Source: Thermogutta terrifontis (lineage in GTDB: Bacteria > Planctomycetota > Planctomycetia > Pirellulales > Thermoguttaceae). From it: a stretch of DNA of 64,000 bases. The DNA is taken from the NCBI RefSeq assembly GCF_002277955.1, contig NZ_CP018477.1:2003206-2067205 (forward strand), written 5' to 3'. The notes under the pieces were generated by a model. That model did no database searches. It saw nothing but the letters and a program-made list of their open reading frames with translations, and was not told the origin of the DNA. Positions 19,455 through 63,841 of this stretch are shown here, piece after piece. The first letter of the stretch is position 1. Each line of letters begins with the position of its first letter. The translations under genes were made by a program, and so were the position numbers.

Positions 19455-19700
19455 TGTCTCATCGATAGGGCATCGGAACGCCTTCCCTAATCGTCATTGT
19501 ATCAGCCTGAACGAAAAAACCCACGTTTTTCCTTCCTCTTTGACGCAAGCCTGCCGTTTTTTGTGAGTCTGGCACTTTCCCGCCGGGAGAGGCGAAACAC
19601 GTATCGAATCCTCTCTGACGAACCCGCTGGAGGTTGTTTCGTTTTCCCGCCGAATTGGCCAAAATAGAAGCGAACTCCGCGCTGGGGAGTCTCTGGCTGG

Positions 19701-20306: not shown

Positions 20307-20343
20307 TACACGCTCACCCGCGGGTTGCGCGGGGCGTGCCGCT

Positions 20344-29323: not shown

Positions 29324-30034
29324 TTAGTACCGCGGAGAAGCTTTTTCCGCCAAGGCGGGCTGGCTTTCTCCGGCTGGGGTGCCGCCGTAAACATACGCTT
29401 CCCATTGTTTGAGGTCCATGCCAAAGTCCTTGCCGGTGGTTTGTTTGAGGGATTGCACGGCAAGGTACTGGATGGCCGGATCGCGATTGCGGAGAAGTTG
29501 AGCTAGAACTTGGTTCGCCCTGGGATCGTGGAGTCGGCCCAGCGCCTTGATTGCCGCCTGGCGAACGTCCTGATCCCGGTCGTTGAGGGCTAACTCAGAC
29601 AGCACGGACACCGCGGAACCAGAGGGACTTTTGGCAAGGAGATGGCACAATTGGATCCGTACGCTTGGCTCCTCGTCGCTCTTGGCACGTTCCACAAGTG
29701 TGTCGCTCGGTGGCAGGTTCAACTGCCCCATGAGACGAAGAAGCTCGGCTCTCAATTGTGGGTCGTCCTCCTTAAGAAAGGCTTCTTCCAATTGTCGGGC
29801 TACGTTTGATTTGGCGCTTGGACTTGTCGCGCTTTTGACCAGCTTTTGCCAGTTTTGAAGCTTCTCCCGCGGGGCGACGATTCCTGGAGGCAGTGGAATA
29901 TCCTGCGATGTTTTCTTCTTTCGCAAAAAGCTGTTCGAGCCGCTACAGCCTGCGGCTAGCACAAGCATGATCAGCACTCCACCAAAGACGCAGTATTTTG
30001 TGAGCGCAGGCGTTCGTGGCTTGTTACGCCTCAT
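29324..30034 (-). CDS. HEAT/PBS-lyase-repeat lipoprotein
   Basis: Start re-assigned to ATG 30034 (MRRNKPRTPALTKYCVFGGVLIMLVLAAGCSG). Lipobox L-A-A-G-C. Repeated HEAT-like units (DEEPSVRIQLCHLLAKS, DRDQDVRQAAIKALGRL, NRDPAIQYLAVQSLKQ). Confidence 0.55.
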   Translation of the reverse strand: MRRNKPRTPALTKYCVFGGVLIMLVLAAGCSGSNSFLRKKKTSQDIPLPPGIVAPREKLQNWQKLVKSATSPSAKSNVARQLEEAFLKEDDPQLRAELLRLMGQLNLPPSDTLVERAKSDEEPSVRIQLCHLLAKSPSGSAVSVLSELALNDRDQDVRQAAIKALGRLHDPRANQVLAQLLRNRDPAIQYLAVQSLKQTTGKDFGMDLKQWEAYVYGGTPAGESQPALAEKASPRY

Positions 30035-30651
30035 CAGATGATTTTCCAGTTTGGATAGGGAGACACACATGAACGGGTCTGCCACAGCGCGAGGTCAAGG
30101 GTTTTCCGTCCATGCCTGACGACGTCCGACAAATTGTCGACAAGCAGGGGGCCGACGGTATCCCTGTCCGCAGACGCCCTTGCTGACATGACTTGCGGAT
30201 GCTTCCTCCATCAGCGCCTAAAGTGCCCGCCGTACGGCCCAAGAATCCCTCTCGCCCGAAACAACCACCCAGATACCCTCGGAGAATACTTACCCAATTC
30301 GGTTCAGTTTGCCAAGGTTTATTTTGCTTCCTTTTTGATGGAGGGGCCAAAACCAGGTCAATGTGCGCCGTGATCCTCAGAACCGCTGGCCTGACTGTGT
30401 CTCGAGGCCGGCTCCCTGGGAATCCGTTCGAAAAGACTCGCGCTGGGCCGGCGAACGGACGTGAATTAGGATAATCTCGGAAGAGCGTTGCCAAATTGGC
30501 GGCGACCATTCGCCCTCCGAATGGGGATGTGATATGATAACAGGTGGTAATGGCCATCCCCTGCGCATGTTCCTCGAGTGGTCTCGACCTACGGATGTTT
30601 ATCGCAGGGTGGTTTACGGTCCATTGGGCGCAAAGGGAAGGAGCGAGTGTC

Positions 30652-31161
30652 ATGATTGAACCTGCCGATCATACGAAAAGACGCAATTGGGTCGAGACCA
30701 TCCTCAGATACGTGCCGGGATTCCGCGGATACTTGGAAAAGGAGTACCGTCGAGAAAGCGACAACCTCCAGCGTGAATGGCTGGCAGGTCGCCTGGAGCG
30801 GGCCAAGCGGGCCATTGACAATCTGATGGGGTTACTGGCCGAAGGAGGACACGTGGACCAACTCGCCAAGCTGGATCAGGTCCGCAGCCGGATCGATCAT
30901 CTCATCGCGCGCGTCCGGGGGGCGATGGAGGGCTATAGCGGTTTCTTTGACCTTGTCAGAATCGACGAAGCGGTGCTCGATCGTGTCTATGAATATGATG
31001 TGTCCCTCGCAGAGAAGGTGGAGGAACTGGCAACGGCCATCGAGCGCTTGCCCAAATGCCCCTCTGACCTATCCTGCGCAATCGACGAGGTGGTCGCTTC
31101 GCTCCAACAGTTCCACCACCTCTGGGATGCCCGCGAAGAGATTCTCGCTGGTCTGCGATAA
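30652..31161 (+). CDS. hypothetical all-alpha cytoplasmic protein (about 170 aa)
   Basis: ATG 30652 preceded by GGAAGGAG (30636-30643) with an 8-nt spacer. The track ORF starts further upstream without an RBS. Helical, charged, no TM. Lies 138 bp upstream of the SPFH gene on the same strand. Confidence 0.4.
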   Translation: MIEPADHTKRRNWVETILRYVPGFRGYLEKEYRRESDNLQREWLAGRLERAKRAIDNLMGLLAEGGHVDQLAKLDQVRSRIDHLIARVRGAMEGYSGFFDLVRIDEAVLDRVYEYDVSLAEKVEELATAIERLPKCPSDLSCAIDEVVASLQQFHHLWDAREEILAGLR

Positions 31162-41440: not shown

Positions 41441-43321
41441 TTATCCTGCGCGAAGACGACGTTCAATCTCACGAATTGTTTCGCGAAGAGGTCGCTGGCC
41501 TTCTGAAGAGGCCATGGCCTCTTGGCCCGAAAGCCATTCCTCCACACGCTTTTGGGCCGAGATCACGGTCGCGTGACTGCGTCGTCCGAAAAATCGACCA
41601 ATCTCCGAAAGATTGGCCCTTGTGCATTTGCGAGCGAGCCACATGGCCAGCATACGTGGCTGCGTGACGATGCGATCTTTCCGGTCACTCTGAAGCGTGC
41701 CGGGAGGAAGGGCAAAAGCTCGGCAGACCTCCCTCTCGATATCGGCGAGCGTCACCTGCTTGGTACCTTCGGGCAGAAGGTCGGAAAGGATTTCTCCGGC
41801 AAGCTGCCGATCGGGTACCCGCTTGAGGGCCCTCGCAGCGGCTTCCAAACGTCGGAGGGCACCAATGATCTGACGAACGCTTCGGGCAAACGATTCAGCA
41901 ATCCACTGCTGGACTTCGCGATCCAGGGAAAAATTGGTCGCGAGGCAGAAATTCTCAACGATTTTCACCCGCGTGGCAAAGTCCGGCGGATCGATACGAC
42001 AGACGATCCCACTTTCCAGTCTGCTGCGTAGCTCAGGTGTCAATTCACGAAGTTCCGAGGGCGGTCGGTCCGCGGCACACACGACCTGACAGCCATTTTT
42101 CATCAACGTGTCAAGTGTGTAGAGAAGTTCGATTTGCGTCTGTCGCTTGCCCCCGAAAAACTGAAGGTCATCCAAAATAAGGAGCTGGACGCCCCGGTAT
42201 TTCTGACGAAAAACCGGGATCGTTCCCGATTGAAGGGCCTCCACGTAAGCACTCGTGAATTGCTCGGCAGAAAGATAGAGCGCGGCGACGCGTGGATTCC
42301 GTTTTTTAACTGTCTTCCAAATACCTTCCAGAAGATGTGTTTTGCCGACACCGCTTGGTCCGTGGATCACCAGCGGGGAATAACTCCCCAATTTTCGGGT
42401 GACCGTCTCGGCAGCCGCATATGCTAGTCGGTTACAATCTCCCACCACAAAGGTTTCCAGATCGCCAAGGCCCAGTGCGTTGGCGCGATTCACGGCACGC
42501 GGTTCCGAACCGGCGGAATTGGGGCGACCCTGGGTGCCATGGACATGCGTGGCGTCCAGTGGTTCTTCCCGTTTTTCCTTCGTGTTGCCATTCGCCTCAC
42601 GGCCATCAGGTGCTTCGACCGTCGTGTGAGGGAGGACGCGAAGAAAATCGCCTGACGAGTCGCAGCCGTCGCACGTAGGTTCGATCTCATCATCGCTGGG
42701 ATCGGCTGGTGCTTCGCCTGCGATATGCGGTGCGAAACCGCAAGGTTTGTGGCTCGCATCATTGAGCGCTTCCAGGGTGCCAGCTGTTTCCCGACTCCCC
42801 ACCGCTGACAGAATCGGCTTTGGCGCGGTAAGTGAATCGGAGGTAATGCACTCAGCGCATGAGGCGTCATTCTCCGCGGAACACTCACGGGCGTGCGCTA
42901 AATGAGCAAAGAGGGGCAGGTCTTCCAGCGAAAACGTCTGAGTGTGAGAGGATAAGCTTTCGCGTGAAGTGGCCCTCTTAGTTGCGGCGGCAGATGACCG
43001 AGTACTGCCCTTGCCCGGACGAGTGGTCGGCCTGGCAAGCACGGGCTCTTCTTCTTCCGAAGTACTCAGATTCTCATTCCACTCGTAGTGAACCTGGGGG
43101 ATTTTGCCGAAGACCGCCTGGCAGGCTTCCTCGATTGCGTCGTGAAAGACTGTTCGAATCCAATCGACATAAAAACTGTTGGCCACCTGGAGCGTAAGCT
43201 GGGCACCATCCCAAAGGAAGCGCGTACGTCGGCCGAACCACAAGGCATAGCGTTCATATCCGACCTTATCGGCCAACACCTTTCGGAGGGCCGATATGAC
43301 TTCCTTATCATCCCTGGTCAC
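41441..43321 (-). CDS. dnaA: chromosomal replication initiator protein DnaA (unusually long domain II linker)
   Basis: Domain I (MTRDDKEVISALRKVLADKVGYERYALWF). AAA+ Walker A (IHGPSGVGKTHLL), Walker B (LLILDDLQFF), sensor/box VII. Domain IV DNA-binding signature (IVTQPRMLAMWLARKCTRANLSEIGRFFGRRSHATVISAQKRV). An acidic/Ser/Cys-rich linker of about 250 aa brings the total to 626 aa. Confidence 0.9.
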   Translation of the reverse strand: MTRDDKEVISALRKVLADKVGYERYALWFGRRTRFLWDGAQLTLQVANSFYVDWIRTVFHDAIEEACQAVFGKIPQVHYEWNENLSTSEEEEPVLARPTTRPGKGSTRSSAAATKRATSRESLSSHTQTFSLEDLPLFAHLAHARECSAENDASCAECITSDSLTAPKPILSAVGSRETAGTLEALNDASHKPCGFAPHIAGEAPADPSDDEIEPTCDGCDSSGDFLRVLPHTTVEAPDGREANGNTKEKREEPLDATHVHGTQGRPNSAGSEPRAVNRANALGLGDLETFVVGDCNRLAYAAAETVTRKLGSYSPLVIHGPSGVGKTHLLEGIWKTVKKRNPRVAALYLSAEQFTSAYVEALQSGTIPVFRQKYRGVQLLILDDLQFFGGKRQTQIELLYTLDTLMKNGCQVVCAADRPPSELRELTPELRSRLESGIVCRIDPPDFATRVKIVENFCLATNFSLDREVQQWIAESFARSVRQIIGALRRLEAAARALKRVPDRQLAGEILSDLLPEGTKQVTLADIEREVCRAFALPPGTLQSDRKDRIVTQPRMLAMWLARKCTRANLSEIGRFFGRRSHATVISAQKRVEEWLSGQEAMASSEGQRPLRETIREIERRLRAG

Positions 43322-49245: not shown

Positions 49246-52200
49246 ATGACCTGGCGGCAGCGGCTGATCAGAGAGATCGGTTTCTTCCTAAAATGGGGCC
49301 TTGCTGTTGCCCTGGTTGCCGGGTTTTTCTTTGCCATCTGGCTCTACAAAAGAGTGGATGACGAGCTCCGCAGCGAAATCGAGCGGCGATGTGCGCAGCT
49401 GTGTCCTCATTTGCGAATCCGAATTCGATCAGCTCAGTTGTTGCCCGGCGAGGGGATACAGCTTCGCGGGGTCCGCATCACCATCACGGATTTACCCAAG
49501 GTGACGGCTACAATCGCTGAAATTGAGGAAATCATGCTGGCTGGGCCAGTGGATTACAAGGGGTTGCTTTCTGGCGAAGTTCCCATTCAACGAGTCGTTG
49601 TCCGCCGGCCGCAGGTGCGCATCGCGTGTGGTAGCGATGGACAATGGAATATTTCTCGTTTACTTCCTCTGCCAAAGCTTGCAGGGAGCAAGCATGCCCC
49701 GATTCACATAGAAAACGGCATGGTGGAGATCGTCGATCTTCGCGGCCCGATTCCCACCGCCATCGCATATCGGGACATTCAGATGGAGATTTCTGGCGAC
49801 TCTCTGCCACAATCGGACGGATCGACCGCCGGGATTCGAAAATTCCGCGGCACAATGACAGGTGATTATGTACGCCGAATCGATGTTGAGGGGACATTTG
49901 ATTCCGAAGCACCATGCGTGAGACTGGCCGGCGCGGTCGACTCCCTGGAATTCTCGCCCGAGTGTCAGGCGGCATTTCCCCGGGAAGTGCGACGCACCCT
50001 GCGTCCGCTGGAACATCTTCGTGCTCAGCTTTCACTGACATTCCACCTTTTCTGGGCGGGCGGAAGCAGCACAGTCGTGGACTATGACGTCTCGGGCCAG
50101 ATTCGTCGCGGACGGCTCGATGATCCAAGACTGCCGTATGCCATTACGGATATCCGCGGCTATTTCACCGCATCGCGGGATGAAGTCTCATTGACCGATG
50201 TGACGGCGTTTTCGGGGTCGACGGCATTTGTGGTGCGCTCGGCCAAACTCTTGCACTGGAACCTGGCGGAGTTGGCTGACCTCGACATGCAGATCAACAA
50301 TTTGAAGTTTGATCCAGCACTTCTTCCCCTTTTGCCACCCAAACTTCAGGAGGAATGGCCGAAATACTTTCCGGAAGGAACGGTTCATCTTACTTTGCGT
50401 TTCACCTCACTCGATGACCAGCGTCACTTTCACGTCACTGCCAATTTGGAAAATGCATCGTTTGCCTATTATCGCTTTCCTTACCGGCTTCAGCAGGTTC
50501 AAGGGCGACTGGAACTCACGCCCGAGCGGCTGGGAATTCAGCTCGTGGCAATGGCGGGAACTCAGCCCGTGGAGATTCGCGGGCAGGTTCTCAATCCTCT
50601 GACGGCCCCTGTGACGCAAATCAGCATCAGCGGTCAGCGGATAGCTCTCGATGAGCGGCTGGTGAACGCTGTGCTCGATACGAAGAGCCGTCAAACGTTG
50701 CGGGCCTTGCATTTGGCTGGTTCGGCTGATGTGTGGCTTGGTTTGTGGCAGGATGAGCCGGGTGGCGTGCTCCATCGCCAGATGGAGGCGACCCTCAACG
50801 GATGCTCGATTCGATATGAAGCGTTTCCTTATCCGATTTCCGACATCACTGGCCGCATCGTGATGCGGGACGATGCCTGGTCGTTCCAGGAACTTCGCGG
50901 AAGAAGCGGTCCAGCAGAGATCTCTGCCTACGGTACGCTCCTTCCGCAAAATGGAAGTTCCACTTTACGCCTCGATTTTGAAGCGAAACATCTCCCGTTA
51001 GACAATGAATTGAAGGGCGCCTTTCGCGAAAATCACATCCGTCAGTTATGGGAAGAGCTAGATCCGGCAGGCACCGTCCAGGTACGGGGGACGCTCCTCT
51101 ATACCTCAGGTGAGCCTCTCGACGTCAAATTATGGGCAAGTCCAATTGACCGGGGGCTGACCCTTCAGCCCCGATCTTTTCCCTACCGTTTGGAGGGCAT
51201 CGTGGGCCAATTGAGATACGAGGCTGGAACTCTCTCATTTCATGGGCTCCGCGGACATCATGAAAACACCGAGTTTCAGGCGGATGGATCCTGCCGACTC
51301 TCACAAAACGGAGGCTGGTCACTGGATCTACGGAACTTGTGGATTGACCGCTTGATAGTGGATCGGGCGTTACTTATGGCCTTGCCGGAAGCCCTGAGCC
51401 GCCCTCTCGCCCGTCTCAATATTCAAGGGCCTCTCGTTGTGCGGGGGCAGTTCCGACTGATCAGAGAACACGACGCCTCAGATCGGGGGCCAGGAGCTGA
51501 AATGGTTGCTTCTGCCAGCGACTCGGTCGGCGGGTCGATCCCGCTTCAGGCAGCGTGGGATGTGGTGATCACCCTCGTTCAAAACAGTATGGGAACGAGC
51601 CTGGTATTCGGGAATTTGAATGGAAAAATTCTTTTCCAGGGGCAATATTCGGAGGGAAGGTTTACAGCCGATGGGTATTTGGCTCTGGACGCCCTGCAGG
51701 TGCTCGGGTTGCCGATCAGCCGGTTACGAGGACCATTTCGGGTTGACAATGAATTTGTCATTTTTGGGGGGGACTGGGCTGTCGCTGAATCCGCTCGAGA
51801 GACACCGATGGCGGGTCAACCGGCAAAGTCCCGCCAGCCTTTAACGGCGGAGATTTTTGGAGGCACGTTATCCGGAACCGGTTGGGTGCGTCTTTCCGAC
51901 AAATTCGAGTACGATGTTGCGCTTTCGTTGTTGAAGTCCGATTTCACGGAGCTTGTACGAGAATACCAGAGTAACTCGTCCATCATCCGTGGGACGCTAG
52001 ATGCAGCCGTGCGACTTAAAGGTCAGGGTGACGATATCCAGGGATTGGCCGGTTATGGGAATTTTCAGCTCCGGGAAGCGAATATCTACGAGCTTCCTTT
52101 GATGATCGCACTTTTGAAGATTCTGAGCATACGACAACCGGAGACCACGGCGTTCAGCGAGAGTTCAGGGCAATTTCGAATCGCTGGCCGACACGTCTAT

Positions 52201-52503
52201 CTGGACAGCATCACCTTTTCGGGGGATGCCTTCAGCCTCACCGGCCAGGGTGAAGTAGATTTGGACGGGAACCTGCGATTGATCATGCGGGCGATGCTGG
52301 GACGCCGCGAGATTCAGGTCCCCGTGGTCAAGGAGCTGTTCCGCGGCGCGAGCGAGCAGATTGTGCTTGTTCACGTGGGAGGCAACTTGAGGGAACCAAT
52401 TGTGCGGCGAGAGCCTTTCCCCGGGGTGAACGAGGCCCTCCAAAGGTTCCAACTGGGAAACAGAAGCGTTCGCGAGGGTGAGGCAATCCTCAGGGAGCGG
52501 TGA
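49246..52503 (+). CDS. AsmA/TamB-like envelope-biogenesis protein (N-terminal TM anchor + long beta-rich domain)
   Basis: N-terminal anchor (FFLKWGLAVALVAGFFFAIWLY) followed by AsmA-like pattern (RRPQVRIACGSDGQWNISRLLP). 1085 aa of repetitive beta-strand-rich sequence. Confidence 0.45.
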   Translation: MTWRQRLIREIGFFLKWGLAVALVAGFFFAIWLYKRVDDELRSEIERRCAQLCPHLRIRIRSAQLLPGEGIQLRGVRITITDLPKVTATIAEIEEIMLAGPVDYKGLLSGEVPIQRVVVRRPQVRIACGSDGQWNISRLLPLPKLAGSKHAPIHIENGMVEIVDLRGPIPTAIAYRDIQMEISGDSLPQSDGSTAGIRKFRGTMTGDYVRRIDVEGTFDSEAPCVRLAGAVDSLEFSPECQAAFPREVRRTLRPLEHLRAQLSLTFHLFWAGGSSTVVDYDVSGQIRRGRLDDPRLPYAITDIRGYFTASRDEVSLTDVTAFSGSTAFVVRSAKLLHWNLAELADLDMQINNLKFDPALLPLLPPKLQEEWPKYFPEGTVHLTLRFTSLDDQRHFHVTANLENASFAYYRFPYRLQQVQGRLELTPERLGIQLVAMAGTQPVEIRGQVLNPLTAPVTQISISGQRIALDERLVNAVLDTKSRQTLRALHLAGSADVWLGLWQDEPGGVLHRQMEATLNGCSIRYEAFPYPISDITGRIVMRDDAWSFQELRGRSGPAEISAYGTLLPQNGSSTLRLDFEAKHLPLDNELKGAFRENHIRQLWEELDPAGTVQVRGTLLYTSGEPLDVKLWASPIDRGLTLQPRSFPYRLEGIVGQLRYEAGTLSFHGLRGHHENTEFQADGSCRLSQNGGWSLDLRNLWIDRLIVDRALLMALPEALSRPLARLNIQGPLVVRGQFRLIREHDASDRGPGAEMVASASDSVGGSIPLQAAWDVVITLVQNSMGTSLVFGNLNGKILFQGQYSEGRFTADGYLALDALQVLGLPISRLRGPFRVDNEFVIFGGDWAVAESARETPMAGQPAKSRQPLTAEIFGGTLSGTGWVRLSDKFEYDVALSLLKSDFTELVREYQSNSSIIRGTLDAAVRLKGQGDDIQGLAGYGNFQLREANIYELPLMIALLKILSIRQPETTAFSESSGQFRIAGRHVYLDSITFSGDAFSLTGQGEVDLDGNLRLIMRAMLGRREIQVPVVKELFRGASEQIVLVHVGGNLREPIVRREPFPGVNEALQRFQLGNRSVREGEAILRER

Positions 52504-52681
52504 AAAGCCGACGATCTCCAGGACCTTGTTGTCCTACAGTTTGTGTTGAAACGAGCTTTGAGCAGGTGGAGTAAGCACAGGTTTGATGGGACGAGGAAGA
52601 GAGTGACAACTTCCAGAGAACGCGGCAAAGGGTTCTTCCTCCTCGGCTGTGACGGCCCGATGTCAATGAGGAGGTTGCACG

Positions 52682-53002
52682 ATGAGTGTTGGACCACTTG
52701 GCCCCATTATCTCCGCGATTGCGGGTACGCCTTTGGCCCAGGGAAAAAGTGAGACTGATACCAGTCAAGTGGTACGGGAGGGCCAGGAGAGGCGTGTGGC
52801 AGCAGATCGGCAGGCAGAAGCCGCTGCTGGAATTGGCGAGACGGATGGAGAGAATCACGAAACGGAAGAGCGCGATGCCGATGGTCGTCGTCCCTGGGAA
52901 TTGCCGCCCGTTTCGAAGAAGACAGATGAAGGCGACGATCAGAAAAAAACTCCCGCTGATCCGCACGGTGAGCTGGGACGCCTCATCGATCTGAGTGGGT
53001 GA
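52682..53002 (+). CDS. small acidic hypothetical protein (about 106 aa, predicted disordered)
   Basis: ATG preceded by a strong RBS GAGGAGG (52668-52674) with a 7-nt spacer, inside an otherwise 700-bp gap. Highly charged composition. No homology recognised. Confidence 0.3.
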   Translation: MSVGPLGPIISAIAGTPLAQGKSETDTSQVVREGQERRVAADRQAEAAAGIGETDGENHETEERDADGRRPWELPPVSKKTDEGDDQKKTPADPHGELGRLIDLSG

Positions 53003-53211
53003 CATGAGGGAGGGAAGAGATGCAGAAGAACGGAGGTGAATCTTCGCTGGCGGTGGCCGGCCGGTAGCGATGTCGCGTGATAGCATCGCCGAAACTGTTC
53101 CAATTGGCGTTCCGGCACGATTCGCGCTCGAATTCTGCTCCACTGGAATGCGACCTGCCTGTAAAATCAATGTTTGCGCGAAGGACGTCGCATGCATGAA
53201 GGAGCGGACGG

Positions 53212-54066
53212 ATGAGATTTGTGAAAATGCATGGCATTGGAAACGATTACATTTTCGTCGACTGCTTTGAACAGTCCCTTCCGGAGGCCCCCGAGGTTCT
53301 CGCACCGAAACTTTCCGACCGTCACTTTGGAATTGGCGGCGACGGCCTCATCCTGATCCTTCCCTCCGATGTGGCTGACGCGCGGATGCGAATCTTCAAC
53401 GCCGATGGTTCCGAAGCCGAAATGTGCGGCAACGGCGTGCGATGCGTCGCCAAGTACATTTACGAAAGAGGGTTGAGCCGGAAGAATCCGCTGAGAATTG
53501 AAACCGGCCGGGGCATATTGAGTCTTCAGCTCAAGATCCAAGGAGACCGGGTTACGGAAGTGACCGTCGACATGGGCGAGCCGATTCTGGAGGCCGCGCG
53601 GATTCCCACGACGTTGCCGGGAAGTCCGGTCGTTGAAGCGCCCCTAACTTTGGATGATGGAACGTCCGTCAACGTGACATGCGTGTCCATGGGCAATCCC
53701 CACTGCGTGATCTTCACCGAGGACCTTACAGACGAGACTTTCCGTCGGCTTGGCCCGATTATCGAAAAGCATCCCGCTTTTCCCCAGCGTGTCAATGTTG
53801 AGTTCGTTCGGGTTTGTTCGCCCCAACGGGTGGAGGTGAGAGTTTGGGAACGCGGATCGGGCGAAACGCTGGCCTGCGGTACCGGTGCGTGCGCCGTCTG
53901 TGTGGCGGGAGCTCTAACCGGGCGAACAGAGCGGAAAATCACGGTTCGGCTTCCCGGGGGCGAACTAATCACGGAATGGGCACCGTCGGGAAGTGTGTTC
54001 ATGACAGGGCCGGCAACCACCGTTTTCACCGGCGAATGGCCGGCCGAAATTGAGCCGGCGCGATAA
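53212..54066 (+). CDS. dapF: diaminopimelate epimerase
   Basis: [18 protein letters not shown]-terminus. Catalytic Cys motifs ([17 protein letters not shown]). Confidence 0.9.
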
Positions 54067-54071
54067 ACGCC

Positions 54072-54872
54072 ATGGCGGAGCCAGCTAAGCTTTCTATGGA
54101 CGGATCGCCGAAATGGCCAGTGAGGGCAGCAGCCCGTGTCACAGCGCTGTTCCTCCGTACGTGGATGAGTACATTGAACTACCGGGTCTGTTATGAGGAT
54201 CGGAGTATCGACCCGGTATATCCGGAATGTGTGGGTCCAAAACTCTATCTGTTTTGGCACGAATATATTTTATTTCCGCTTTATTTACGTGGGCATTGTT
54301 ACCTGACAATGCTTGTGTCCCGGCACAGAGACGCGAATTTGTTGACCGAAGTGGCCAGGGTCTTGGGGTTTGATTTCGTTCGGGGTTCAAGCCGCCGGGG
54401 GGGCGATCAGGCCCTTCGACAATTAATCGAGATTGGGCGGTGCCGGCATCTTACGATTACGCCCGACGGTCCCCGCGGACCCCGCCGCCATATGGCACCG
54501 GGTGCCGTTTACGTGGCCTCTCGATTGGGTGTACCGATTGTGCTGATGGGGTTCGGGTATCACAGGCCGTGGCGGTTGAACAGTTGGGATCGGTTCGCCA
54601 TTCCGCGGCCATTTTCAAGAGCCCGTGCAATCACCAGCGCTCCCATCACGATTCCTCAGGACCTGGACCGAGAAGGCATTGAGTATTATCGCCAAATGCT
54701 GGAGAGCCGCTTGAATGGGCTGACGGAAGAGGCGGAGAAATGGGCTGAAAGTGGCCTTGCGCGTGAGAACGAGACGGCCTTATTCAAAGCCCGGGCCGCT
54801 CATCCGCCGTGGGAATGTCATCCAGAAGGCCATGAAATAGGGTTGAAACTGGTAAATCGCGCGGCATGCTAG
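54072..54872 (+). CDS. DUF374-family lysophospholipid-acyltransferase-like protein
   Basis: DUF374 hallmarks (FWHEY, MLVSRHRDANLL, RGSSRRGGDQALRQL, ITPDGPRGP). Confidence 0.65.
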   Translation: MAEPAKLSMDGSPKWPVRAAARVTALFLRTWMSTLNYRVCYEDRSIDPVYPECVGPKLYLFWHEYILFPLYLRGHCYLTMLVSRHRDANLLTEVARVLGFDFVRGSSRRGGDQALRQLIEIGRCRHLTITPDGPRGPRRHMAPGAVYVASRLGVPIVLMGFGYHRPWRLNSWDRFAIPRPFSRARAITSAPITIPQDLDREGIEYYRQMLESRLNGLTEEAEKWAESGLARENETALFKARAAHPPWECHPEGHEIGLKLVNRAAC

Positions 54873-56452: not shown

Positions 56453-57475
56453 ATGCAGCAAACGCTTCTCCGTCTAGGCACTCAGATAGAGAACCGCTTG
56501 CCAACGGGTCTTTTGGGCTTGTTTGGAGCGTTGATCTTCTGCGCCGTTGTTTTGGACTCGAGTTCGATTCGAGCAGCCCCACAACAACAGCGGAGTGGCT
56601 TCCTGGTGGGGTTCGAGGCGGCACCGTTTTTGCCACTCCCTGAACCCGGACCTCCGTCCGCCCAGGTGAAGGAAGGTCTGGGTGAATCGCGTGAAAAAAC
56701 TGTTCAAAAAGACCAAACGACAGCGCAGCCGCAACAACCCGAGGTCGCGGAATCTAAAGCTGTTAAGAAAGACGCCGGACTGCCATCGCAGCAGTCTTCC
56801 TTCGGTGTATGGGAAATCATCAAAGCAGGCGGGACGGTGGGGTTCATCATCATCGGCCTCTCCCTGGTGGCTGGTGCCCTGGTTGTCGAGCAGCTCATCA
56901 CGCTTCGTAAATCGGTGCTTATGCCCCCGGAGGTCGTGAGCCAACTGGGTCAGGCGATGGCCGCTCGCGATTCAAAGGGACTGATGGCCACTTGTGAAGC
57001 CCATCCGTGCGTCTTCACAGATGTACTGAAGGCCGGGCTGGCTGAGTGGGAAGGTGGATGGCACCAAGTGGAAAAAGCGCTGGAGGATGCCCTTACGGAA
57101 TACACCGCCAAACTTCTCCGCAAAGTGGAGTATTTGTCTGTGATCGGTAACCTGGCGCCGATGCTGGGGCTGTTGGGAACGGTGGTGGGTATGATCCTGG
57201 CGTTTAAAACAGTGGCCGAGACTCAGGGGGCAGCACGGGCCGCCGATTTGGCACAGGCGATTTATCTGGCCCTTGTGACGACCGTGGAGGGGTTGATCGT
57301 CGCCATCCCCTCGCTTGCCGCCTACGCCTATTTTCGCAATCGCGTGGATGAATTGATGGCAGAAGTGGCCGTTACCCTGCAACAACTTTTGGCACCGTTG
57401 CGGCGGCGGCGTGTGGCCGCAAAGCCTCCTGTCAGTTCCTCGGGAGCACCACCGTCTGGAAGTGTCCGCGGATGA
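56453..57475 (+). CDS. MotA/TolQ/ExbB-family proton-channel protein (with N-terminal signal peptide and periplasmic extension)
   Basis: ExbB core (LSVIGNLAPMLGLLGTVVGMILAF ... AIYLALVTTVEGLIVAIPSLAAYAYF). Start taken at ATG 56453 (MQQTLLRLG... hydrophobic signal). The track ORF starts at 56369. Confidence 0.8.
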   Translation: MQQTLLRLGTQIENRLPTGLLGLFGALIFCAVVLDSSSIRAAPQQQRSGFLVGFEAAPFLPLPEPGPPSAQVKEGLGESREKTVQKDQTTAQPQQPEVAESKAVKKDAGLPSQQSSFGVWEIIKAGGTVGFIIIGLSLVAGALVVEQLITLRKSVLMPPEVVSQLGQAMAARDSKGLMATCEAHPCVFTDVLKAGLAEWEGGWHQVEKALEDALTEYTAKLLRKVEYLSVIGNLAPMLGLLGTVVGMILAFKTVAETQGAARAADLAQAIYLALVTTVEGLIVAIPSLAAYAYFRNRVDELMAEVAVTLQQLLAPLRRRRVAAKPPVSSSGAPPSGSVRG

Positions 57476-57897
57476 GAGCGAGCGTTCATCCGGTCAGATT
57501 GCCCGTGAAGTTGAATCTCACGCCGATGATCGACGTGACGTTTCAGCTAATTTTGTTTTTTTTGCTTGCCGGACACTTGGCTCAACAGGAAAGCGCCGTG
57601 GATCTGGATCTGCCGGTGGCACAAACCGGCCACAAAGCGATGGAGAGTCCCACGCGACGACTTGTCATCAATGTGGCCCAAGATGGAACCCTCATCGTTG
57701 GTGGTGAGATGATTGATCTCGAACGGTTGGGCCAGATTCTCTCAGCGGATCGGAAGACGAGCGAATCCCTGGAAGTGCGGATTCGAACTGATCGCCGGAC
57801 ACCTTACGGCAAGATCGCACCCCTTCTCATTCGCTGCACGGAGAGCGGGATCTGGAATGTTTCCTTTGCAGTTATCGGTGAAGAGACATCCCCTTAA
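57472..57897 (+). CDS. ExbD/TolR-family biopolymer transport protein
   Basis: LTPMIDVTFQLILFFLLAG motif (conserved Asp in TM). Start overlaps the exbB stop by 4 nt. Confidence 0.8.
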   Translation: MRASVHPVRLPVKLNLTPMIDVTFQLILFFLLAGHLAQQESAVDLDLPVAQTGHKAMESPTRRLVINVAQDGTLIVGGEMIDLERLGQILSADRKTSESLEVRIRTDRRTPYGKIAPLLIRCTESGIWNVSFAVIGEETSP

Positions 57898-57933
57898 AGG
57901 CTCCAGAAGATTGATCGTGAGTCAGGGTGCGTC

Positions 57934-58377
57934 ATGAGACGGCAATCAGTGTTGAACCAGAAACAGGACCTGGATTTGCCGATGACGCCAATGATTGACG
58001 TCGTCTTTCAGTTGATTATCTTCTTCCTCTGCACAACCCGATTTACACCGCTTGAGCAAGTCCTGCCAACCCCACTCGATGAGTCCGGCGGCTCGCGAAG
58101 AGTGGAGTCGCCTCCACCAGAAGTTGTGAATCTGACGGAAGTTGTCATCAAGCTGGCTGATGGTCAGCCGGTCAGGATCACTCTTAATGGTCGGCAGGTG
58201 AGCGATTTCGACGAACTCGGGATGACGCTTCAGGCTGTTGCACGTGTTCGCGTGGATGTTCCCGTGGTTATCGATGCAGGCTTTGCAGTTCCAATGCAGG
58301 ACGTCGTCCAGGCATATGATCTCTGCCGGAAGGTTGGTTTCCAGAAGATCCATCTTGCGGCTCCGCCACGTCCATGA
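57934..58377 (+). CDS. ExbD/TolR-family biopolymer transport protein (second copy)
   Basis: MTPMIDVVFQLIIFFLCT motif. Stop overlaps the start of the downstream TPR gene by 4 nt (ATGA). Confidence 0.8.
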   Translation: MRRQSVLNQKQDLDLPMTPMIDVVFQLIIFFLCTTRFTPLEQVLPTPLDESGGSRRVESPPPEVVNLTEVVIKLADGQPVRITLNGRQVSDFDELGMTLQAVARVRVDVPVVIDAGFAVPMQDVVQAYDLCRKVGFQKIHLAAPPRP

Positions 58378-61016
58378 AACGGTTGTTGGCTTTCTTGGTT
58401 ATTCTGTTGGAGTTGGGCCTGGTGCCGTTAGAGGGCACGGCAGATGTTACTGAAGACCTGCGGTTCATTCAATCGTTGCGGTCTCGTCGTCTCTTTCGGC
58501 TGGCCGAGTATCAGTGTGAGCTCGCGTTGCAGCGGCCGGGCTTAAGTACCGGTGACAAGGCAGTACTCACCGTCCAGTTTCTGGAAACGCTCAATGAACA
58601 CGCCCTTTATGCCGAAGTTGGCCGGCGGACAGCCTGCTGGCAACGGGCTCAGGAATTGACCAGCAGCTTCGAGAAAGATCACGAAGAGACCGATGGGAGC
58701 CTCGTCGTGCGCCTGTCGGGCGTGAAAGTTCTCGTGGAGCAGGGAAAAATCCTGCGGGAGGAGGCCGAGTTGACTCTTCTGGCCACACGTTCTTCGTCCT
58801 CGCTGTGGGATGAGATGATGAAGCCGTCGCGCACAGTTCTCCGGAAGGCTGGAGAGCAACTGAAGGCCCTCCGCGATGAAATCGCGCGATCACTCAGGCG
58901 CGCGCAAAAAGTGACGGAGACTGACGGCCTTCCACTTGGCGAGCAACAGCTTCTGAGCCTCGAAAAACAGGCCCAATTCTGGACAGCGCTTGCCGCATGT
59001 GAACTGGCACGGACCTATCCTGCTGGGTCGGAAGATTATCTGGCTATGCTCAATGATGCGGCGAGCAACCTCCGGGGCCTCAGTGAACTGCCGCTTGACC
59101 ATCCTCTCGGCTTTCCCGCCCGGCTCTATTATGCGGATGTCAATCGACTGCTCGGCCAGAAGGAAGCGGCATGGAAAATCCTCGCCGGTCTCGATGATGA
59201 GCAACTCTCCAAAGATCGACAACAAGAACTCCTTGCGGGTCGGTTGCAATGGGCCACCACTTTTGAAGAAGAACAACTGGCCAAAACGCTGTTTGAAAGG
59301 GCCATGACAGTTGAGGTTTCACTTTCGCCACCTTTGGCTTTCGCGATGCTCGAAACCGCTACCTGGTTTTGGAAAAAAGCAGGGGAAAAAGGCGACAAAA
59401 GTTCTGAGGAGTGGGAGGTCCAGATCAAAAAGCTGGTGGAAGTCCTCAGACAGAGCGGCTCGACGTATTGGACCCACCGGGGAGAACTCCTCGTGGCGCA
59501 TGCCGCGTCGGCAAGTGCAAGCGCAAACAGCACAACTCTGGATCTTTATGTGGCGGAGAACGCTTATCGAGCTGGAAGGTGGCAAGAGGCCATCGAGGCT
59601 TATGACCGTGTTGCTCAAACAGCAAAAAAAGCCGGGCAGGAGGATGTGGCCTTTCAGTGCAGTTGGGCTGCTGCGGCCATTGCCCAACAACAGTCGCTGC
59701 ATCAGGAAGCGTGGCAGCGGTTCAACACGCTTGCCCAGGAGTTTCCCCACCAGGCGAAGGCGTCCCAAGCTGCGTTTCTGGCGCTGGTCAATCTTGGCCA
59801 ACTGGTAGCAAAAGACGAGAAAGCATACCTCGCTCTTTACGAACGAGAACTCCGCGCGTATCTCGATCGATTCCCCCGGGGGAAAGAGGCGTATCTCGTG
59901 CGATTCCGCCTGGCGCAACTCCTTGAGTATCAATCCCGGATACAAGAGGCCGTTGGCATGTACCTGGACACCCTGGAGCAATTGCCTGCCGACCAAGGCG
60001 GAGAAACGAGTGGTAGTTCTCAGCAGGGGGATAGTACGAGTGACCTGCTGCAGGAGACCAAACGAGAAGAGGTGCTTGAAAAAGTCTTCCTGGGGCTCGA
60101 TCGGTGCCTGTCCGTTCTCTGCGCGGGGACAAGGCAGGATTTCTCCGCGGAGGCTCGCCAGGTTGCGCAGCGTCTTCATGCCTGGAGTATCGTCGGGAAC
60201 GGGGATCGCACGGATCAGCGCTATCGACTCATGGCCGAGGAGCGCGCCATCCGACTGATGCTGTGGGAATGCGGTGATCCCGTATTCGCGGAAAAAATTC
60301 TCCTAACACGGTTCCCCGATCCAGATCATTTTTGGAAAGAATTCCGAACGCTAAGCAATGACGTCTCAAGCACATCCGGGTGGATAACCCTCTGGCTGGA
60401 GGTCATGGCTCAATTGGGGCGAGAAAGAGAGGCACAGTATTGGTGCGAACAACTTCGCCATCTGGAGTTTGATGTTCGCTGGGAATGGGCGAGCGGCGTC
60501 ACCGAGAAACTCTCCCAGGCAAAACCGAATCGAGCTCAGGCGATCGCCCGATGGGTTGTGGCAGCGGTCCCGGACTTTGTCCAGCAATACGCGACACATC
60601 CCCAAGATTGGAAGGTCCAAGCCGGTTTGAAGTATGCCCGGCTGCTCGTGATGGCAAACCTCCATGAGGACTCGCTGGGCTGGATGCGCCGCCTGGCGCA
60701 GGAATTTCCTGAACATGGTGAAATTCAGGAAAACCTTGCGCTTCTTTTGGCTTATTCGGACGACGTTTTGCTACGGAACGAATCTCTCCAGAAATTTCAG
60801 GAAATTGCTCGGCGAACGCCGGAGGGATCTCCTCGGTGGTTTCGGGCAAAGTATATGACGGCCTGGTTGCTCCACAATTTAGGGAGAACACGCGATGCCT
60901 GGGAGATGCTGAGTCTGCTTGAAACTCTCCACCCTGACCTGGGAGGAGAGCCCCTGAGGGGGAAAATCTTGTCCCTGAAAGACGAATGCCAGAGACATTC
61001 GCCGCAAGACAGATAA
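58374..61016 (+). CDS. secreted TPR-like/alpha-solenoid protein (880 aa) translationally coupled to exbB-exbD-exbD
   Basis: Signal peptide/anchor (MKRLLAFLVILLELGLVPLEGTA). Remainder all-alpha with repeated helical-hairpin (TPR-like) periodicity. No TonB C-terminal domain and no Pro-rich TonB spacer. Confidence 0.45.
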   Translation: MKRLLAFLVILLELGLVPLEGTADVTEDLRFIQSLRSRRLFRLAEYQCELALQRPGLSTGDKAVLTVQFLETLNEHALYAEVGRRTACWQRAQELTSSFEKDHEETDGSLVVRLSGVKVLVEQGKILREEAELTLLATRSSSSLWDEMMKPSRTVLRKAGEQLKALRDEIARSLRRAQKVTETDGLPLGEQQLLSLEKQAQFWTALAACELARTYPAGSEDYLAMLNDAASNLRGLSELPLDHPLGFPARLYYADVNRLLGQKEAAWKILAGLDDEQLSKDRQQELLAGRLQWATTFEEEQLAKTLFERAMTVEVSLSPPLAFAMLETATWFWKKAGEKGDKSSEEWEVQIKKLVEVLRQSGSTYWTHRGELLVAHAASASASANSTTLDLYVAENAYRAGRWQEAIEAYDRVAQTAKKAGQEDVAFQCSWAAAAIAQQQSLHQEAWQRFNTLAQEFPHQAKASQAAFLALVNLGQLVAKDEKAYLALYERELRAYLDRFPRGKEAYLVRFRLAQLLEYQSRIQEAVGMYLDTLEQLPADQGGETSGSSQQGDSTSDLLQETKREEVLEKVFLGLDRCLSVLCAGTRQDFSAEARQVAQRLHAWSIVGNGDRTDQRYRLMAEERAIRLMLWECGDPVFAEKILLTRFPDPDHFWKEFRTLSNDVSSTSGWITLWLEVMAQLGREREAQYWCEQLRHLEFDVRWEWASGVTEKLSQAKPNRAQAIARWVVAAVPDFVQQYATHPQDWKVQAGLKYARLLVMANLHEDSLGWMRRLAQEFPEHGEIQENLALLLAYSDDVLLRNESLQKFQEIARRTPEGSPRWFRAKYMTAWLLHNLGRTRDAWEMLSLLETLHPDLGGEPLRGKILSLKDECQRHSPQDR

Positions 61017-61018
61017 AA

Positions 61019-63841
61019 TCATCCGGATTTTTTGGGTAGGTTGTCGCCCAGCAGTTGCTCTACCACCGGTTTCAGGAGTTCCGACCACAACTGGTATCCC
61101 TTGTCGCTCAGATGAAGGCCGTCGTTGACGAAAAGGTCTGGTTGCGGATGGCCATCGGGGCCCAGCATGGGTTTCTCGACGTCCAGAAAATGCACTTTGG
61201 ATTCCGGATGGGCCCGGCAGTATTCCTCAATGAGATGGTTGGCGGCTCGAATTTTGTCGATCAGATGCCATCGGGCAAGCGATGGCTTGATCCCGATGAA
61301 GATGACCGGGGCGGTGACACCTTCGGAACGGATGACCTGCAGGAAATCGGCGAAGCGCCGACAAACGATCTCCGGTGATGCCCCGGCTCCAATGTCGTTG
61401 TCCCCGGCATAGAAGACAATCAGTTGAGGGTGGTAGGGAGCAATAATGCGCTTCGCGTAATGGGTAACCTCATGAATCTGTGAGCCGCCAAAGCCCCGAT
61501 TGATTGTGATCCAGTGGGGAAACCATCGCGACACATCCCATCGCACGATGCTGGAACTTCCCACGAAGAGAATGGCTCCGTCGGGTGGCGGATGAAGTTT
61601 GTCTGCTTCTTCGAATTTCTTGATGGCGGATTCCCAGCGTTCGGGCCCCGTGTCCTTTTTCTTCTCCTCGTAACTCGCAAGCCTCGCGGAGATCGCACGC
61701 CGCCATGACAGCAGTGCGCGATTCGCAGGTCGCGGGCCGATTTTCTCAAAAGGAATCGCCTCAAATCCTGGAAGTGTGGATTGAAGGGGGGCATCCGGCT
61801 TCAGCCGCCAGTCTTCGGTCTCGGGATTGACAAAGAAACGGGCTGTGGCCTCCAGCGGAAGTATCACATTGTTTTCCATGACGAGGTACGACCGCGCACG
61901 ATTCTCGATGTTTTCCCAGGTTCCCCCGAAGCAAAGGTTTTTGCGAATGATATTGCCTTTCGGTGCCGCAGGTTCGTCCTCGAGGATATTGACCAGTGTC
62001 GGATAGGCTTTTCGCCAGAGTTCACTCTTATAGGGCATGGCTTTGAGACGCTCCGTCATTGTCGTGGGCACGTGGTAGGAAGCCCAGCCGAGAGCGCGGG
62101 CATCGACATGCACTGCCGGGCGGCAGTCAATGAATATGTTATTCTCTACGAGATTGTCTCGCCCACCTCCGATAAATGCAGCGCGTGTTACCTGATAAAA
62201 GATATTGTTGGTGATTTGTGTGCCGCAGAACATATCGTCCAGGTACACTCCCATACAGCCGCGGTTTTGAAAACCCGATATATGATGAAAGTAATTCCAG
62301 GAGATGACGGTCCCCCGCATGGTCCAGTCACGGCCGGCGTAGATCGCTCCCGCATCGTTGGACTCCAGGCAGACGTGGTCGATCTCGTTCCATGAAATTG
62401 TGTGGTTGTTACCGGAAAAACCGACCGCCTGATGGGGCGCATGGTGGATGTGATTATGGAGGACATGCTGTCCAACGCCGCCGATCGAGACTCCCGCGCG
62501 ATACATGGGATGGATTTGCCCGTAGTCATGGATTTCGTTATCCTCCACGATGTGGCCTGCGGGCGAGAGCGTGGCCCGATCGCCCCCTGTGGCGGAGACG
62601 CCCCCTTCGCCGAGTTCATGGAGATGACTCTGGCGTACGACGCACTGACGACCTCCACGTATCTGAACCGCCCAGCCACCCGTCAATAGGAATTCACAGT
62701 TTTCGACGGTGCAATTTTCACAATTCTCGCACACCAGTGCCGTGCCGCGACAATGGGCGAGCCGCAGACCCCGCAAGGTGACATTTCTTACTGAAACCAG
62801 TTGCATAATTCCAGAACTGACAGAAACGGTGGGCTGGCCATCTTCAAGGCGGGCGGGATCGGTGGGAGAGTCGGGCGGCCAGAAATAGAGCTGGCCCGTT
62901 ACTCTGTCGAGATAATATTCGCCCGGTGTGTCGAGTTCACTGAGGAGATTGAAGGCATACCACCACTGTCCTTTTCGGTAGCCATAGTAATGGTAAGGTG
63001 GTTTAACAGCAATGAGGGAACGATCGGGATCAATGAGGGCGACCGGATGCCGCTGGTCGGACCAGTCCCAGAACCAGTAGCCATGAACCCAGGGGTCCTT
63101 CTCCTTCACCCAGCGGGATGGACGATTGCCCTCGTAAATAAACTTGCCGACTTTGTCGCCCTTTTTACCGCGTACGTCGATGGGCTGTTCACCCAATACG
63201 TCCACAATTTTGGTAAAACCCTGGTTCGGCCATCGCGCTAATGTCATTCGGCGATTTTGATAGCAAAGCTCGAGACCTCCGCCTCCCGCCGAGCCGTAGT
63301 CGGACACCCCAAGTTCTTTAAGATCGGCAATGAAGACGTGCTCGCGTGCCTCTTGAGGGAGGAGCGGCGACACGTTGGCCACCTCAATCGCACGTTTCCA
63401 GTTCGTGACGAGTCGTCCGCCACTCCATACCACGGCGCCAGGCGTCTTTGCTTCAAATTCGAGGCTGGCGATCGACTTCGGTAGATCACGGAGGGTAACG
63501 GGTTCGGACAATTCCAGCCGGCCAGGTTCGAAAATGACCTTGACCCTGACAACAGTGCCTTTTTCTGCAACTTGATTCAAGGCCTGGCGGAGTTGGGCAA
63601 GTGTCCGCCATGGTCCGGTGCGATTTTTGGCATCCGGAGAAGGCGACAGCCCGGACCACTCATCGTTTCCCTGGGCAGAAACGTAGAAGGTGACCTGGCC
63701 CGACGCTGCTTCCTCGCCAGATGCGATCGCCCCTTGTGGCAACAGCCACCCGGTGATCAGGCAACTCAAGATCGCCCAGCGGACAAGAGTGCCTTTTGTT
63801 TCAGCAAGCATGGTGCAACTTTCCTTATTCGAGGAAATCAA
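61019..63841 (-). CDS. secreted bifunctional protein: N-terminal parallel beta-helix domain + C-terminal SGNH/GDSL hydrolase (carbohydrate esterase-like) domain
   Basis: Signal peptide (WAILSCLITGWLLPQGAIASG). Beta-helix rungs (NVTLRGLRLAHCRGTALVCENCENCTVENCEF, NNIFYQVTRAAFIGGGRDNLVENNIFIDC). C-terminal SGNH blocks (ILFVGSSSIVRWD, GFGGSQ, FYAGDNDIG, DGLHLSDKGYQ). Confidence 0.55.
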   Translation of the reverse strand: MISSNKESCTMLAETKGTLVRWAILSCLITGWLLPQGAIASGEEAASGQVTFYVSAQGNDEWSGLSPSPDAKNRTGPWRTLAQLRQALNQVAEKGTVVRVKVIFEPGRLELSEPVTLRDLPKSIASLEFEAKTPGAVVWSGGRLVTNWKRAIEVANVSPLLPQEAREHVFIADLKELGVSDYGSAGGGGLELCYQNRRMTLARWPNQGFTKIVDVLGEQPIDVRGKKGDKVGKFIYEGNRPSRWVKEKDPWVHGYWFWDWSDQRHPVALIDPDRSLIAVKPPYHYYGYRKGQWWYAFNLLSELDTPGEYYLDRVTGQLYFWPPDSPTDPARLEDGQPTVSVSSGIMQLVSVRNVTLRGLRLAHCRGTALVCENCENCTVENCEFLLTGGWAVQIRGGRQCVVRQSHLHELGEGGVSATGGDRATLSPAGHIVEDNEIHDYGQIHPMYRAGVSIGGVGQHVLHNHIHHAPHQAVGFSGNNHTISWNEIDHVCLESNDAGAIYAGRDWTMRGTVISWNYFHHISGFQNRGCMGVYLDDMFCGTQITNNIFYQVTRAAFIGGGRDNLVENNIFIDCRPAVHVDARALGWASYHVPTTMTERLKAMPYKSELWRKAYPTLVNILEDEPAAPKGNIIRKNLCFGGTWENIENRARSYLVMENNVILPLEATARFFVNPETEDWRLKPDAPLQSTLPGFEAIPFEKIGPRPANRALLSWRRAISARLASYEEKKKDTGPERWESAIKKFEEADKLHPPPDGAILFVGSSSIVRWDVSRWFPHWITINRGFGGSQIHEVTHYAKRIIAPYHPQLIVFYAGDNDIGAGASPEIVCRRFADFLQVIRSEGVTAPVIFIGIKPSLARWHLIDKIRAANHLIEEYCRAHPESKVHFLDVEKPMLGPDGHPQPDLFVNDGLHLSDKGYQLWSELLKPVVEQLLGDNLPKKSG

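Follow-up and report, generated by a model that had tools for sequence, protein, structure and literature searches.

Proton-driven 5:2 motors of the Tol/Exb type are understood mainly through TonB, which serves nutrient import, and TolA, which serves outer-membrane tethering; the docking of these two proteins on ExbB and TolQ has as its signature a transmembrane (TM) helix with the pattern S-x3-H. In exbB-exbD1-exbD2 clusters of Xanthomonas and Bacteroidota, exbB is followed by two tandem ExbD paralogues, in some Bacteroidota clusters together with a tetratricopeptide repeat (TPR) gene, and these clusters contain, or else rely on, a canonical tonB and numerous TonB-dependent transporters. An ExbB bearing a signal peptide and an N-terminal periplasmic extension is known in some proteobacteria. 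Although most Planctomycetes are without TonB and TolA partners, they have retained a conserved motor that contains two ExbD paralogues and is accompanied by two TPR proteins. In this study, we analyzed a motor locus of Thermogutta terrifontis, an exbB-exbD1-exbD2 operon ending in a gene for a secreted TPR/alpha-solenoid protein of 880 amino acids (aa), here called TPRl. It lies in a stretch of 64,000 nucleotides (nt) of contig NZ_CP018477.1 (positions 2,003,206 to 2,067,205), hereafter the window. The operon probably represents one half, motor and large TPR protein, of a Tol/Ton-like envelope machine specific to Planctomycetota, with an anchored S-x3-H protein as its transducer and TPRl as its scaffold.

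Two described systems come closest. First, Williams-Jones et al. (2025, Mol Biol Evol; PMC12204202) present a locus composed of a vWA force transducer, a TPR protein, tolQ and two tolR genes, found computationally, with AlphaFold 3 models that put the TM helix of the vWA protein on the motor. The vWA-transducer system is known from computation only, and this single paper is the prior link of such motors to vWA-headed TonB-like proteins. Second, in the Agl-Glt machine of Myxococcus (AglR/AglQ/AglS and GltD/GltE/GltG/GltC), AglR5-AglQ-AglS engages GltG at its TM helix; in the published model the GltG linker, which is disordered, wraps in a groove of GltD, the large periplasmic TPR protein, to which the smaller TPR protein GltE binds (PMC11761067). 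The surface adhesin CglB is a vWA-domain protein according to the title of a preprint (bioRxiv 10.1101/2020.07.22.216333), and an aglRQS-gltDEGC core complex of unknown function has been reported outside gliding bacteria (PMC3169522).

The four genes of the operon were verified as plus-strand open reading frames (ORFs): exbB (56453..57475; an ExbB/TolQ-like subunit of 340 aa from its ATG), exbD1 (57472..57897; ExbD/TolR paralogue 1, 141 aa), exbD2 (57934..58377; paralogue 2, more divergent, 147 aa) and the TPRl gene (58374..61016). Together with the Pfam matches to MotA_ExbB, ExbD and ExbD, this shows that the exbB-exbD-exbD-TPR operon proposed in a previous sequence-only reading of this DNA exists as described. 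The same reading took all four genes to be translationally coupled, which holds at two of the three junctions: ATGA overlaps were read from the sequence at exbB/exbD1 (57472-57475) and exbD2/TPRl (58374-58377), whereas exbD1 and exbD2 do not overlap and are separated by a 36-nt spacer (57898-57933). Close homologues share the exbB start at the ATG of position 56453, and a TTG at 56369 is also open. Upstream, the operon is separated by a 193-nt gap from xseA. Downstream, it ends at 61016 and the stop codon of a convergent gene starts at 61019, only 3 nt further, so that a tonB gene cannot follow within the same operon; a tonB of this operon lying immediately outside the window, one of the two findings that the sequence-only reading had named as fatal to it, is thereby ruled out. 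Scans for promoters and terminators gave nothing better than shuffled sequences.

Relatives of TPRl were much more numerous than a word-indexed search suggested. That search yielded only six homologues, one of them annotated as Thermogutta sp., and an exhaustive profile search yielded 1636 cluster representatives at a threshold of E <= 1e-3, of which 590 passed E <= 1e-30; the majority of the representatives were 820-890 aa long. A scan of one genome per species with a seven-sequence TPRl alignment located 30 loci, all in Planctomycetota (Thermogutta, Thermoguttaceae, Pirellulales and Planctomycetaceae). The order exbB-exbD1-exbD2-TPRl was kept in 20 of the 24 loci having enough upstream DNA, spanning Thermoguttaceae, Pirellulales and Planctomycetaceae at TPRl identities down to 25-35%. 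All-against-all clustering of the locus ORFs revealed that in 15-16 of the more distant loci exbB is directly preceded by two further plus-strand genes, one for a vWA protein of about 340 aa and, between it and exbB, one for a second TPR protein of about 340 aa with a signal peptide (TPRs). The resulting six-gene arrangement, vWA-TPRs-exbB-exbD1-exbD2-TPRl (Type A), was found in 15 loci. Orthology of the window genes with these loci was judged at the locus level, given the same order and strand and the similarity of ExbB (E 1e-64 to 1e-77), ExbD1 (1e-30 to 1e-38), ExbD2 (1e-19 to 1e-35) and TPRl (1e-43 to 1e-79). The four-gene arrangement with xseA upstream (Type B) was seen in the window and loci L003-L006, plus the incomplete loci L001, L002 and L007, and its flanks persist at 34-35% TPRl identity. 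The exbD2/TPRl start-stop overlap is confined to Type B; elsewhere the two genes are separated by about 20-340 nt (344 nt in L018). The Thermogutta-type operon is thus a lineage-specific trimmed variant of the planctomycete six-gene envelope system.

Other loci have no motor genes. In Type C, either vWA, TPRs and TPRl are separate genes (L034), or vWA is followed by a single protein of 1140-1215 aa (L035-L038). All 12 representatives of that length proved to be TPRs fused to TPRl (P0012, P0013, P0031, P0039, P0061, P0071, P0075, P0077, P0082, P0090, P0123 and P0155), their N-terminal ~340 residues corresponding to TPRs (E 1e-92 to 1e-132). In the four fusion loci examined (L035-L038, covering three of the 12 fusion proteins), the upstream vWA gene was kept and neither exbB nor exbD was present. 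The Type C flanks resemble those of six-gene loci: L036-L038 have pdf upstream and a pair of small genes downstream, and topo VI-B is present in L037, whose contig extends far enough. The simplest reading is that the fusion arose by a deletion of exbB-exbD1-exbD2 that joined both TPR genes. This suggests that TPRs and TPRl flank the motor as one unit, and the fusion provides a putative Rosetta-stone link between the two proteins. Finally, Type D comprises orphan TPRl genes among unrelated genes (L017, 6752-9424; L028, 4958-7504) such as proA and fliM-like neighbours; the 5-7 kb upstream of them contain neither motor genes nor a gene for vWA or the small TPR protein. Because some lineages have vWA and fused TPRs::TPRl without motor genes, or TPRl alone, the exbB-exbD-exbD motor, vWA, TPRs and TPRl are modular parts that can be unlinked in the genome. 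Thus, the absence of vWA and TPRs beside the window motor does not show that this lineage is without them.

The three motor proteins matched their Pfam families clearly (ExbB to MotA_ExbB, PF01618, E 2.2e-29, 102 bits against a cut-off of 22.9; ExbD1 and ExbD2 to ExbD, E 2.4e-22 and 1e-19). On the other hand, none of them had an equivalog-level NCBIfam match to ExbB, ExbD, TolQ or TolR, and all scored far under the cut-offs: ExbB obtained 73.7 bits with TolQ (cut-off 221), 47.5 with exbB (206) and 50.6 with exbB2 (135), the ExbD_1 model gave 45.2 bits for ExbD1 and 23.2 for ExbD2 (153), and the TolR model gave 48.5 and 24.1 bits for the ExbD proteins (127). In a sequence search of the PDB, ExbB was equidistant from TolQ and ExbB (E about 1e-9) and ExbD1 was nearest to ExbD (E 1.7e-7), and there was no match for ExbD2 at E <= 0.01. 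As the sequence-only reading had noticed, the two ExbD proteins are paralogues; they form separate orthologous sets over 20 or more loci (D1-D1 E 1e-30 to 1e-80 vs about 1e-5 to 1e-9 for D1-D2). The TM motif TPMIDV, with its protonatable Asp, was conserved in at least 90% of 23 ExbD1 orthologues, and this Asp in at least 90% of 25 ExbD2 orthologues. The motor is therefore a divergent Tol/Exb-type stator with two heterologous ExbD paralogues. ExbB and the two Asp-keeping ExbD proteins make up the set of parts for a proton-driven 5:2 stator whose plug is an ExbD1/ExbD2 heterodimer, and since both paralogues keep the TPMIDV Asp, this plug would be expected to be doubly protonatable and to form the stator core.

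ExbB contains four hydrophobic segments rather than three (aa 15-42, 121-152, 227-256 and 265-292), the first being separated from the conserved TM1 by a low-complexity stretch of about 80 aa in which Pro, Gln, Glu and Lys are abundant. This pattern fits a predicted signal peptide and periplasmic extension followed by three TM helices, in agreement with the sequence-only reading, and the signal-peptide-plus-linker layout is common to all orthologues. In Type B loci (the window and L003-L006) the extension is 79-95 aa long and carries a P[FL]LPLPEP motif, which is conserved in the Thermogutta-type clade and reads PFLPLPEP in the window (56624..56647). In contrast, the extension is 14-51 aa long and without the motif in all 14 ExbB proteins of the six-gene type that were measured (the ExbB of L025 was not scorable). 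TPR grooves typically bind short peptides, and we infer that this motif could be a docking peptide for the TPR groove.

TPRl begins with a Sec-type signal peptide (aa 1 to ~23; MKR, a hydrophobic segment and GTA|D), which is canonical (...GWAGA|EQ) in distant homologues. A lipoprotein or otherwise membrane-anchored form was considered and rejected, as there is neither a lipobox Cys nor a second hydrophobic segment. The AlphaFold2 (AF2) model is all-alpha with about 40 helices (predicted local distance difference test score 84.3) and a disordered insert at aa 541-562, and the C-terminal region carries two hallmark motifs, GSPRWFRAKY (aa 818-827) and HPDLGG (aa 853-858). Pfam gave only sub-threshold TPR matches and no TonB_C, TonB or TolA domain, and the NCBIfam model of YbgF (CpoB) matched weakly (E 0.006, 17.2 bits against a cut-off of 90). 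The sequence-only reading had described an all-alpha repeat protein with a signal peptide and without a TonB C-terminal domain, and had proposed a profile check for hidden TonB or TolA domains; Pfam and the AF2 model bear out the description, and the check found none. Structural neighbours in the PDB libraries, to which fold comparisons were directed, were of the scaffold type only. TPRl is thus predicted to be exported by a cleavable signal peptide and to fold as a long TPR solenoid. Cys48 is invariant in 35 of 35 diverse family members and Cys872 is present in 26 of 35; the two residues lie near opposite ends of the solenoid, a pattern that is compatible with a periplasmic disulfide tying these ends together. 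With its signal peptide, no anchor and only scaffold-type structural neighbours, TPRl is, by analogy, most likely a periplasmic scaffold and not the motor output.

The vWA protein, encoded upstream in the 15 six-gene loci, has the features of a TonB-like transducer. It contains an N-terminal TM helix, LP[SA]W-x2-S-x3-H, in which P25, W27, S30 and H34 are invariant, followed by a Gly/Pro-rich low-complexity disordered linker and a C-terminal VWA_2 domain with a DRSGS metal ion-dependent adhesion site (MIDAS) motif. No TonB_C domain was detected in any related-locus protein scanned. More than 2600 matches were obtained when the vWA alignment was searched as a profile; among the matches listed, all those bearing an organism name were planctomycete, and the 120 listed of these more than 2600 included no entry of the genus Thermogutta. 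The S-x3-H helix is also kept in the vWA proteins of the motor-less loci L034 and L036-L038, while the called product in L035 starts too late to show it; a motor encoded elsewhere presumably serves these proteins. When hidden Markov models (HMMs) of vWA and TPRs were run against all window ORFs of at least 70 aa, no vWA or TPRs gene was found in the 64 kb, only a match to a TM helix. Likewise, there was no Pfam match to TonB_C, Plug, TonB_dep_Rec or vWA in the operon proteins or in the approximately 33 other window ORFs scanned. Judging from these sequences, a TonB-like transducer exists in the planctomycete system, and in the Thermogutta clade it is not encoded beside the motor.

The sole match of the vWA HMM in the window (E 6e-5) was the TM helix of a minus-strand ORF at 17436-19400 (open to 19454/19493; 654-672 aa), whose sequence APAWLISLVFHLVAFLLLGML is like the vWA helix. 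This TM helix, APAWLISLVFHLVAFLLLG, carries the P-x-W-x2-S-x3-H motif of the vWA transducers, and it is the only instance of the motif in a hydrophobic context in the window. Among the homologues listed, the W, S and H were kept in 120 of 120, and 113 had a CxxC...CxxC zinc ribbon upstream of the helix; these listed homologues were Planctomycetota-type proteins annotated as 'terpene cyclase/mutase' or 'prenyltransferase repeat'. The AF2 model comprises the zinc ribbon (23-60), the TM helix (160-179), a disordered linker (185-277) and an (alpha/alpha)6 toroid (280-617), which Foldseek matched to GH76 mannanases, class II terpene cyclases and prenyltransferase beta subunits. The modelled topology is that of TonB/TolA with a different head and with a cytoplasmic zinc ribbon. 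In the one other genomic context seen, the gene of this toroid family was not linked to exbBD. We infer that the protein is a candidate client of the exbB-exbD1-exbD2 motor, and it may represent a second class of motor-coupled planctomycete protein.

Compared with the vWA-transducer loci of the Planctomycetes-Verrucomicrobia-Chlamydiae (PVC) group (PMC12204202), the system analyzed here is alike in that orthologous planctomycete loci encode a TM-anchored SHLS-type vWA protein beside the same genes, in its two distinct ExbD sets and in a co-occurring TPR gene (TPRl, directly downstream in the window and in 20 of the 24 loci). It differs in that the window operon and its clade are without adjacent vWA and small TPR genes, the Planctomycetia order (vWA first, large TPR last) is not the one stated in the paper for its PVC examples, and the ExbB extension of the window clade is longer and has a clade-specific motif. 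The likeness to Agl-Glt lies in its parts. Once the related loci are counted, each system combines a TolQ-like subunit and two dissimilar TolR-like subunits with a TonB-like transducer that is TM-anchored and has a long disordered linker, with two periplasmic TPR proteins, one large and one small, and with a vWA domain, which in Agl-Glt we take to be that of CglB; the window itself has the large TPR protein only. Here the vWA domain is fused to the transducer in place of TonB_C, and no Glt outer-membrane barrels or cytoplasmic platform were seen. A gliding-like machine, one of the ideas of the sequence-only reading, has compositional support only, by analogy, and Thermogutta is not known to glide.

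Our findings suggest the following mechanism. ExbB5-ExbD1/ExbD2 would turn proton flow into force on a protein with an S-x3-H helix, and this force transducer would be a membrane-anchored protein that docks the helix on ExbB in the manner of TonB and TolA. TPRl and TPRs together would form a periplasmic scaffold or adaptor that binds the disordered linker or the head of the transducer and connects it to the wall or the outer membrane, a role analogous to that modelled for GltD in Myxococcus. The motor of the Thermogutta clade most likely would serve one or more S-x3-H anchored proteins encoded elsewhere, the 17436-19400 protein being one candidate. The powered process might be adhesin or surface-fibre handling, polymer capture or envelope tethering. 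TonB and its receptors were found in only four of the planctomycete genomes examined in a previous study (PMC3422733), the two non-anammox ones having one receptor each, and the PMC12204202 supplement states, citing Witwinowski et al. (2022), that pal was not found in Planctomycetes. With TonB and receptors rare and pal not found in the phylum, a non-Ton, non-Tol envelope role is plausible, which agrees with the remark of the sequence-only reading that planctomycetes are poor in such receptors.

The conserved gene order across families, the Rosetta-stone fusion and the conserved TM Asp count in favor of this explanation. Several observations weigh against the proposed mechanism. The support for every member of the system is computational, and the scaffold role of TPRl rests on analogy. 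The window clade has no vWA or TPRs beside the motor, or anywhere in the 64 kb, and may have lost both. The ATGA coupling of exbD2 and TPRl, together with the long ExbB extension specific to this clade, might reflect a more direct link between motor and TPRl. Moreover, TPRl need not be linked to the motor, as its orphan genes in L017 and L028 show.

Such a more direct motor-TPRl contact in the Type B clade ranked second among the readings. In this explanation, which we consider unlikely, the motor works without a TonB-like transducer, and the secreted TPRl, engaged by ExbD2 or by the ExbB extension, is itself the output or a stator-anchoring partner. The 4-nt exbD2/TPRl overlap in the window clade, the lack of a transducer gene in the operon or window, and the 79-95-aa Pro-rich ExbB extension with its PLLPLPEP-type motif, absent from six-gene loci, all point in this direction. 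However, a membrane anchor is missing from TPRl, 15 orthologous loci combine the same genes with one for a TonB-like anchored vWA protein, TPRl occurs without adjacent motor genes (fused to TPRs or as an orphan), and a gap of about 20-340 nt instead of an overlap separates exbD2 and TPRl in most loci. For lack of an anchor, and given the vWA protein and the motor-less TPRl genes, the view in the sequence-only reading that the TPR protein replaces TonB as the output is not supported; the part of that reading which is upheld is a non-canonical motor locus without TonB, in a phylum where Ton and Tol partners are scarce. A bolder form of direct action, which seems improbable, is that the PLLPLPEP peptides of the five Pro-rich ExbB arms (79-95 aa) of the Thermogutta-type clade dock in the TPRl groove, so that the stator acts directly on a soluble scaffold, and more broadly that one motor works with interchangeable non-TonB heads (vWA, alpha/alpha toroid). 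If true, direct action on TPRl would mean that ion-driven 5:2 motors have a further, novel mode of output, and Planctomycetes would use one motor with interchangeable heads for an envelope function not yet described.

An ordinary Ton system, with tonB and TonB-dependent transporter genes elsewhere in the genome and TPRl as an accessory like the TPR protein of some exbB-exbD-exbD-tonB-TPR clusters, is likewise improbable. It would accord with the MotA_ExbB and ExbD domains, the conserved TM Asp and the PDB proximity of ExbD1 to ExbD. In addition, tonB is often unlinked to exbBD (PMC12204202), and the four planctomycete genomes mentioned above do have TonB and TonB-dependent receptors (PMC3422733). 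Nevertheless, the two non-identical ExbD proteins depart from the Ton system, the scores of ExbB and ExbD are far under the equivalog cut-offs, synteny in the relatives ties the module to a vWA-headed TonB-like protein instead of a TonB_C protein, and neither TonB_C nor a transporter occurs in the operon or window. TonB is also reported absent from Rhodopirellula baltica (van Niftrik 2010, as cited in PMC3422733), yet a Rhodopirellula sp. metagenome-assembled genome encodes the vWA homologue P0180. We regard as slightly more doubtful a Tol-Pal-like system (TolQRA-TolB-Pal-CpoB) for outer-membrane tethering or division, with TPRl as a giant analogue of CpoB/YbgF. The best NCBIfam match of ExbB is TolQ, a periplasmic TPR protein with a weak YbgF match is encoded with the motor, as CpoB is, and envelope-related genes (AsmA-like, dapF, DUF374) lie nearby; but the locus has no TolA, TolB or Pal, its flanks are xseA and a beta-helix/GDSL gene, its synteny partner in relatives is vWA rather than TolB-Pal, and pal was not found in the phylum, according to the supplement cited above. 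The TPR protein also differs in size, having 880 aa against about 260 aa for CpoB. That TPRl is merely adjacent to the motor and functionally unrelated to it is very improbable: orphan TPRl genes (L017, L028) and motor-less loci exist, but across families the genes stay adjacent and in the same order at 25-35% identity, they overlap in the window clade, and the proposed motor deletion left TPRs fused to TPRl. A Zorya anti-phage or other defence system was also considered and rejected, as PADLOC gave only marginal superfamily matches to ZorA (E 0.004-0.009) and none for the other three proteins.

If the proposed machine exists, these results would provide a part list, with pairings, for a third kind of proton-powered envelope machine, in a phylum whose envelope biology (crateriform structures, polymer uptake, holdfasts) has been poorly explained so far. 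New in our analysis are TPRl as a phylum-wide family travelling with the motor, the defined ways in which the module breaks (motor with TPRl, vWA with fused TPRs::TPRl, and orphan TPRl), and a second, very widespread planctomycete family with the same motor-docking helix on a different head.

Some neighbouring genes of the window are also worth recording. The gene converging on TPRl (61019-63841, minus strand), with 2 nt between the two stop codons, encodes a 940-aa secreted right-handed beta-helix protein with a C-terminal GDSL/SGNH esterase domain; it is kept beside TPRl in L001, L002, L005 and L006, a synteny specific to the Thermogutta-type clade. Just upstream of xseA, a plus-strand region (49246-54872) contains envelope-related genes for a 1085-aa protein with weak AsmA/DUF748 similarity, a diaminopimelate epimerase (dapF) and a DUF374 protein. 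Three minus-strand ORFs had no Pfam match at E <= 0.001: 19494-20459 (321 aa), 30024-30653 (209 aa) and 3775-6789 (1004 aa), the last being the longest unannotated ORF of the window. Finally, a dnaA homologue of 626 aa with Bac_DnaA, DnaA_N and DnaA_C domains lies at 41441-43321 (minus strand), so the window may be near the replication origin.

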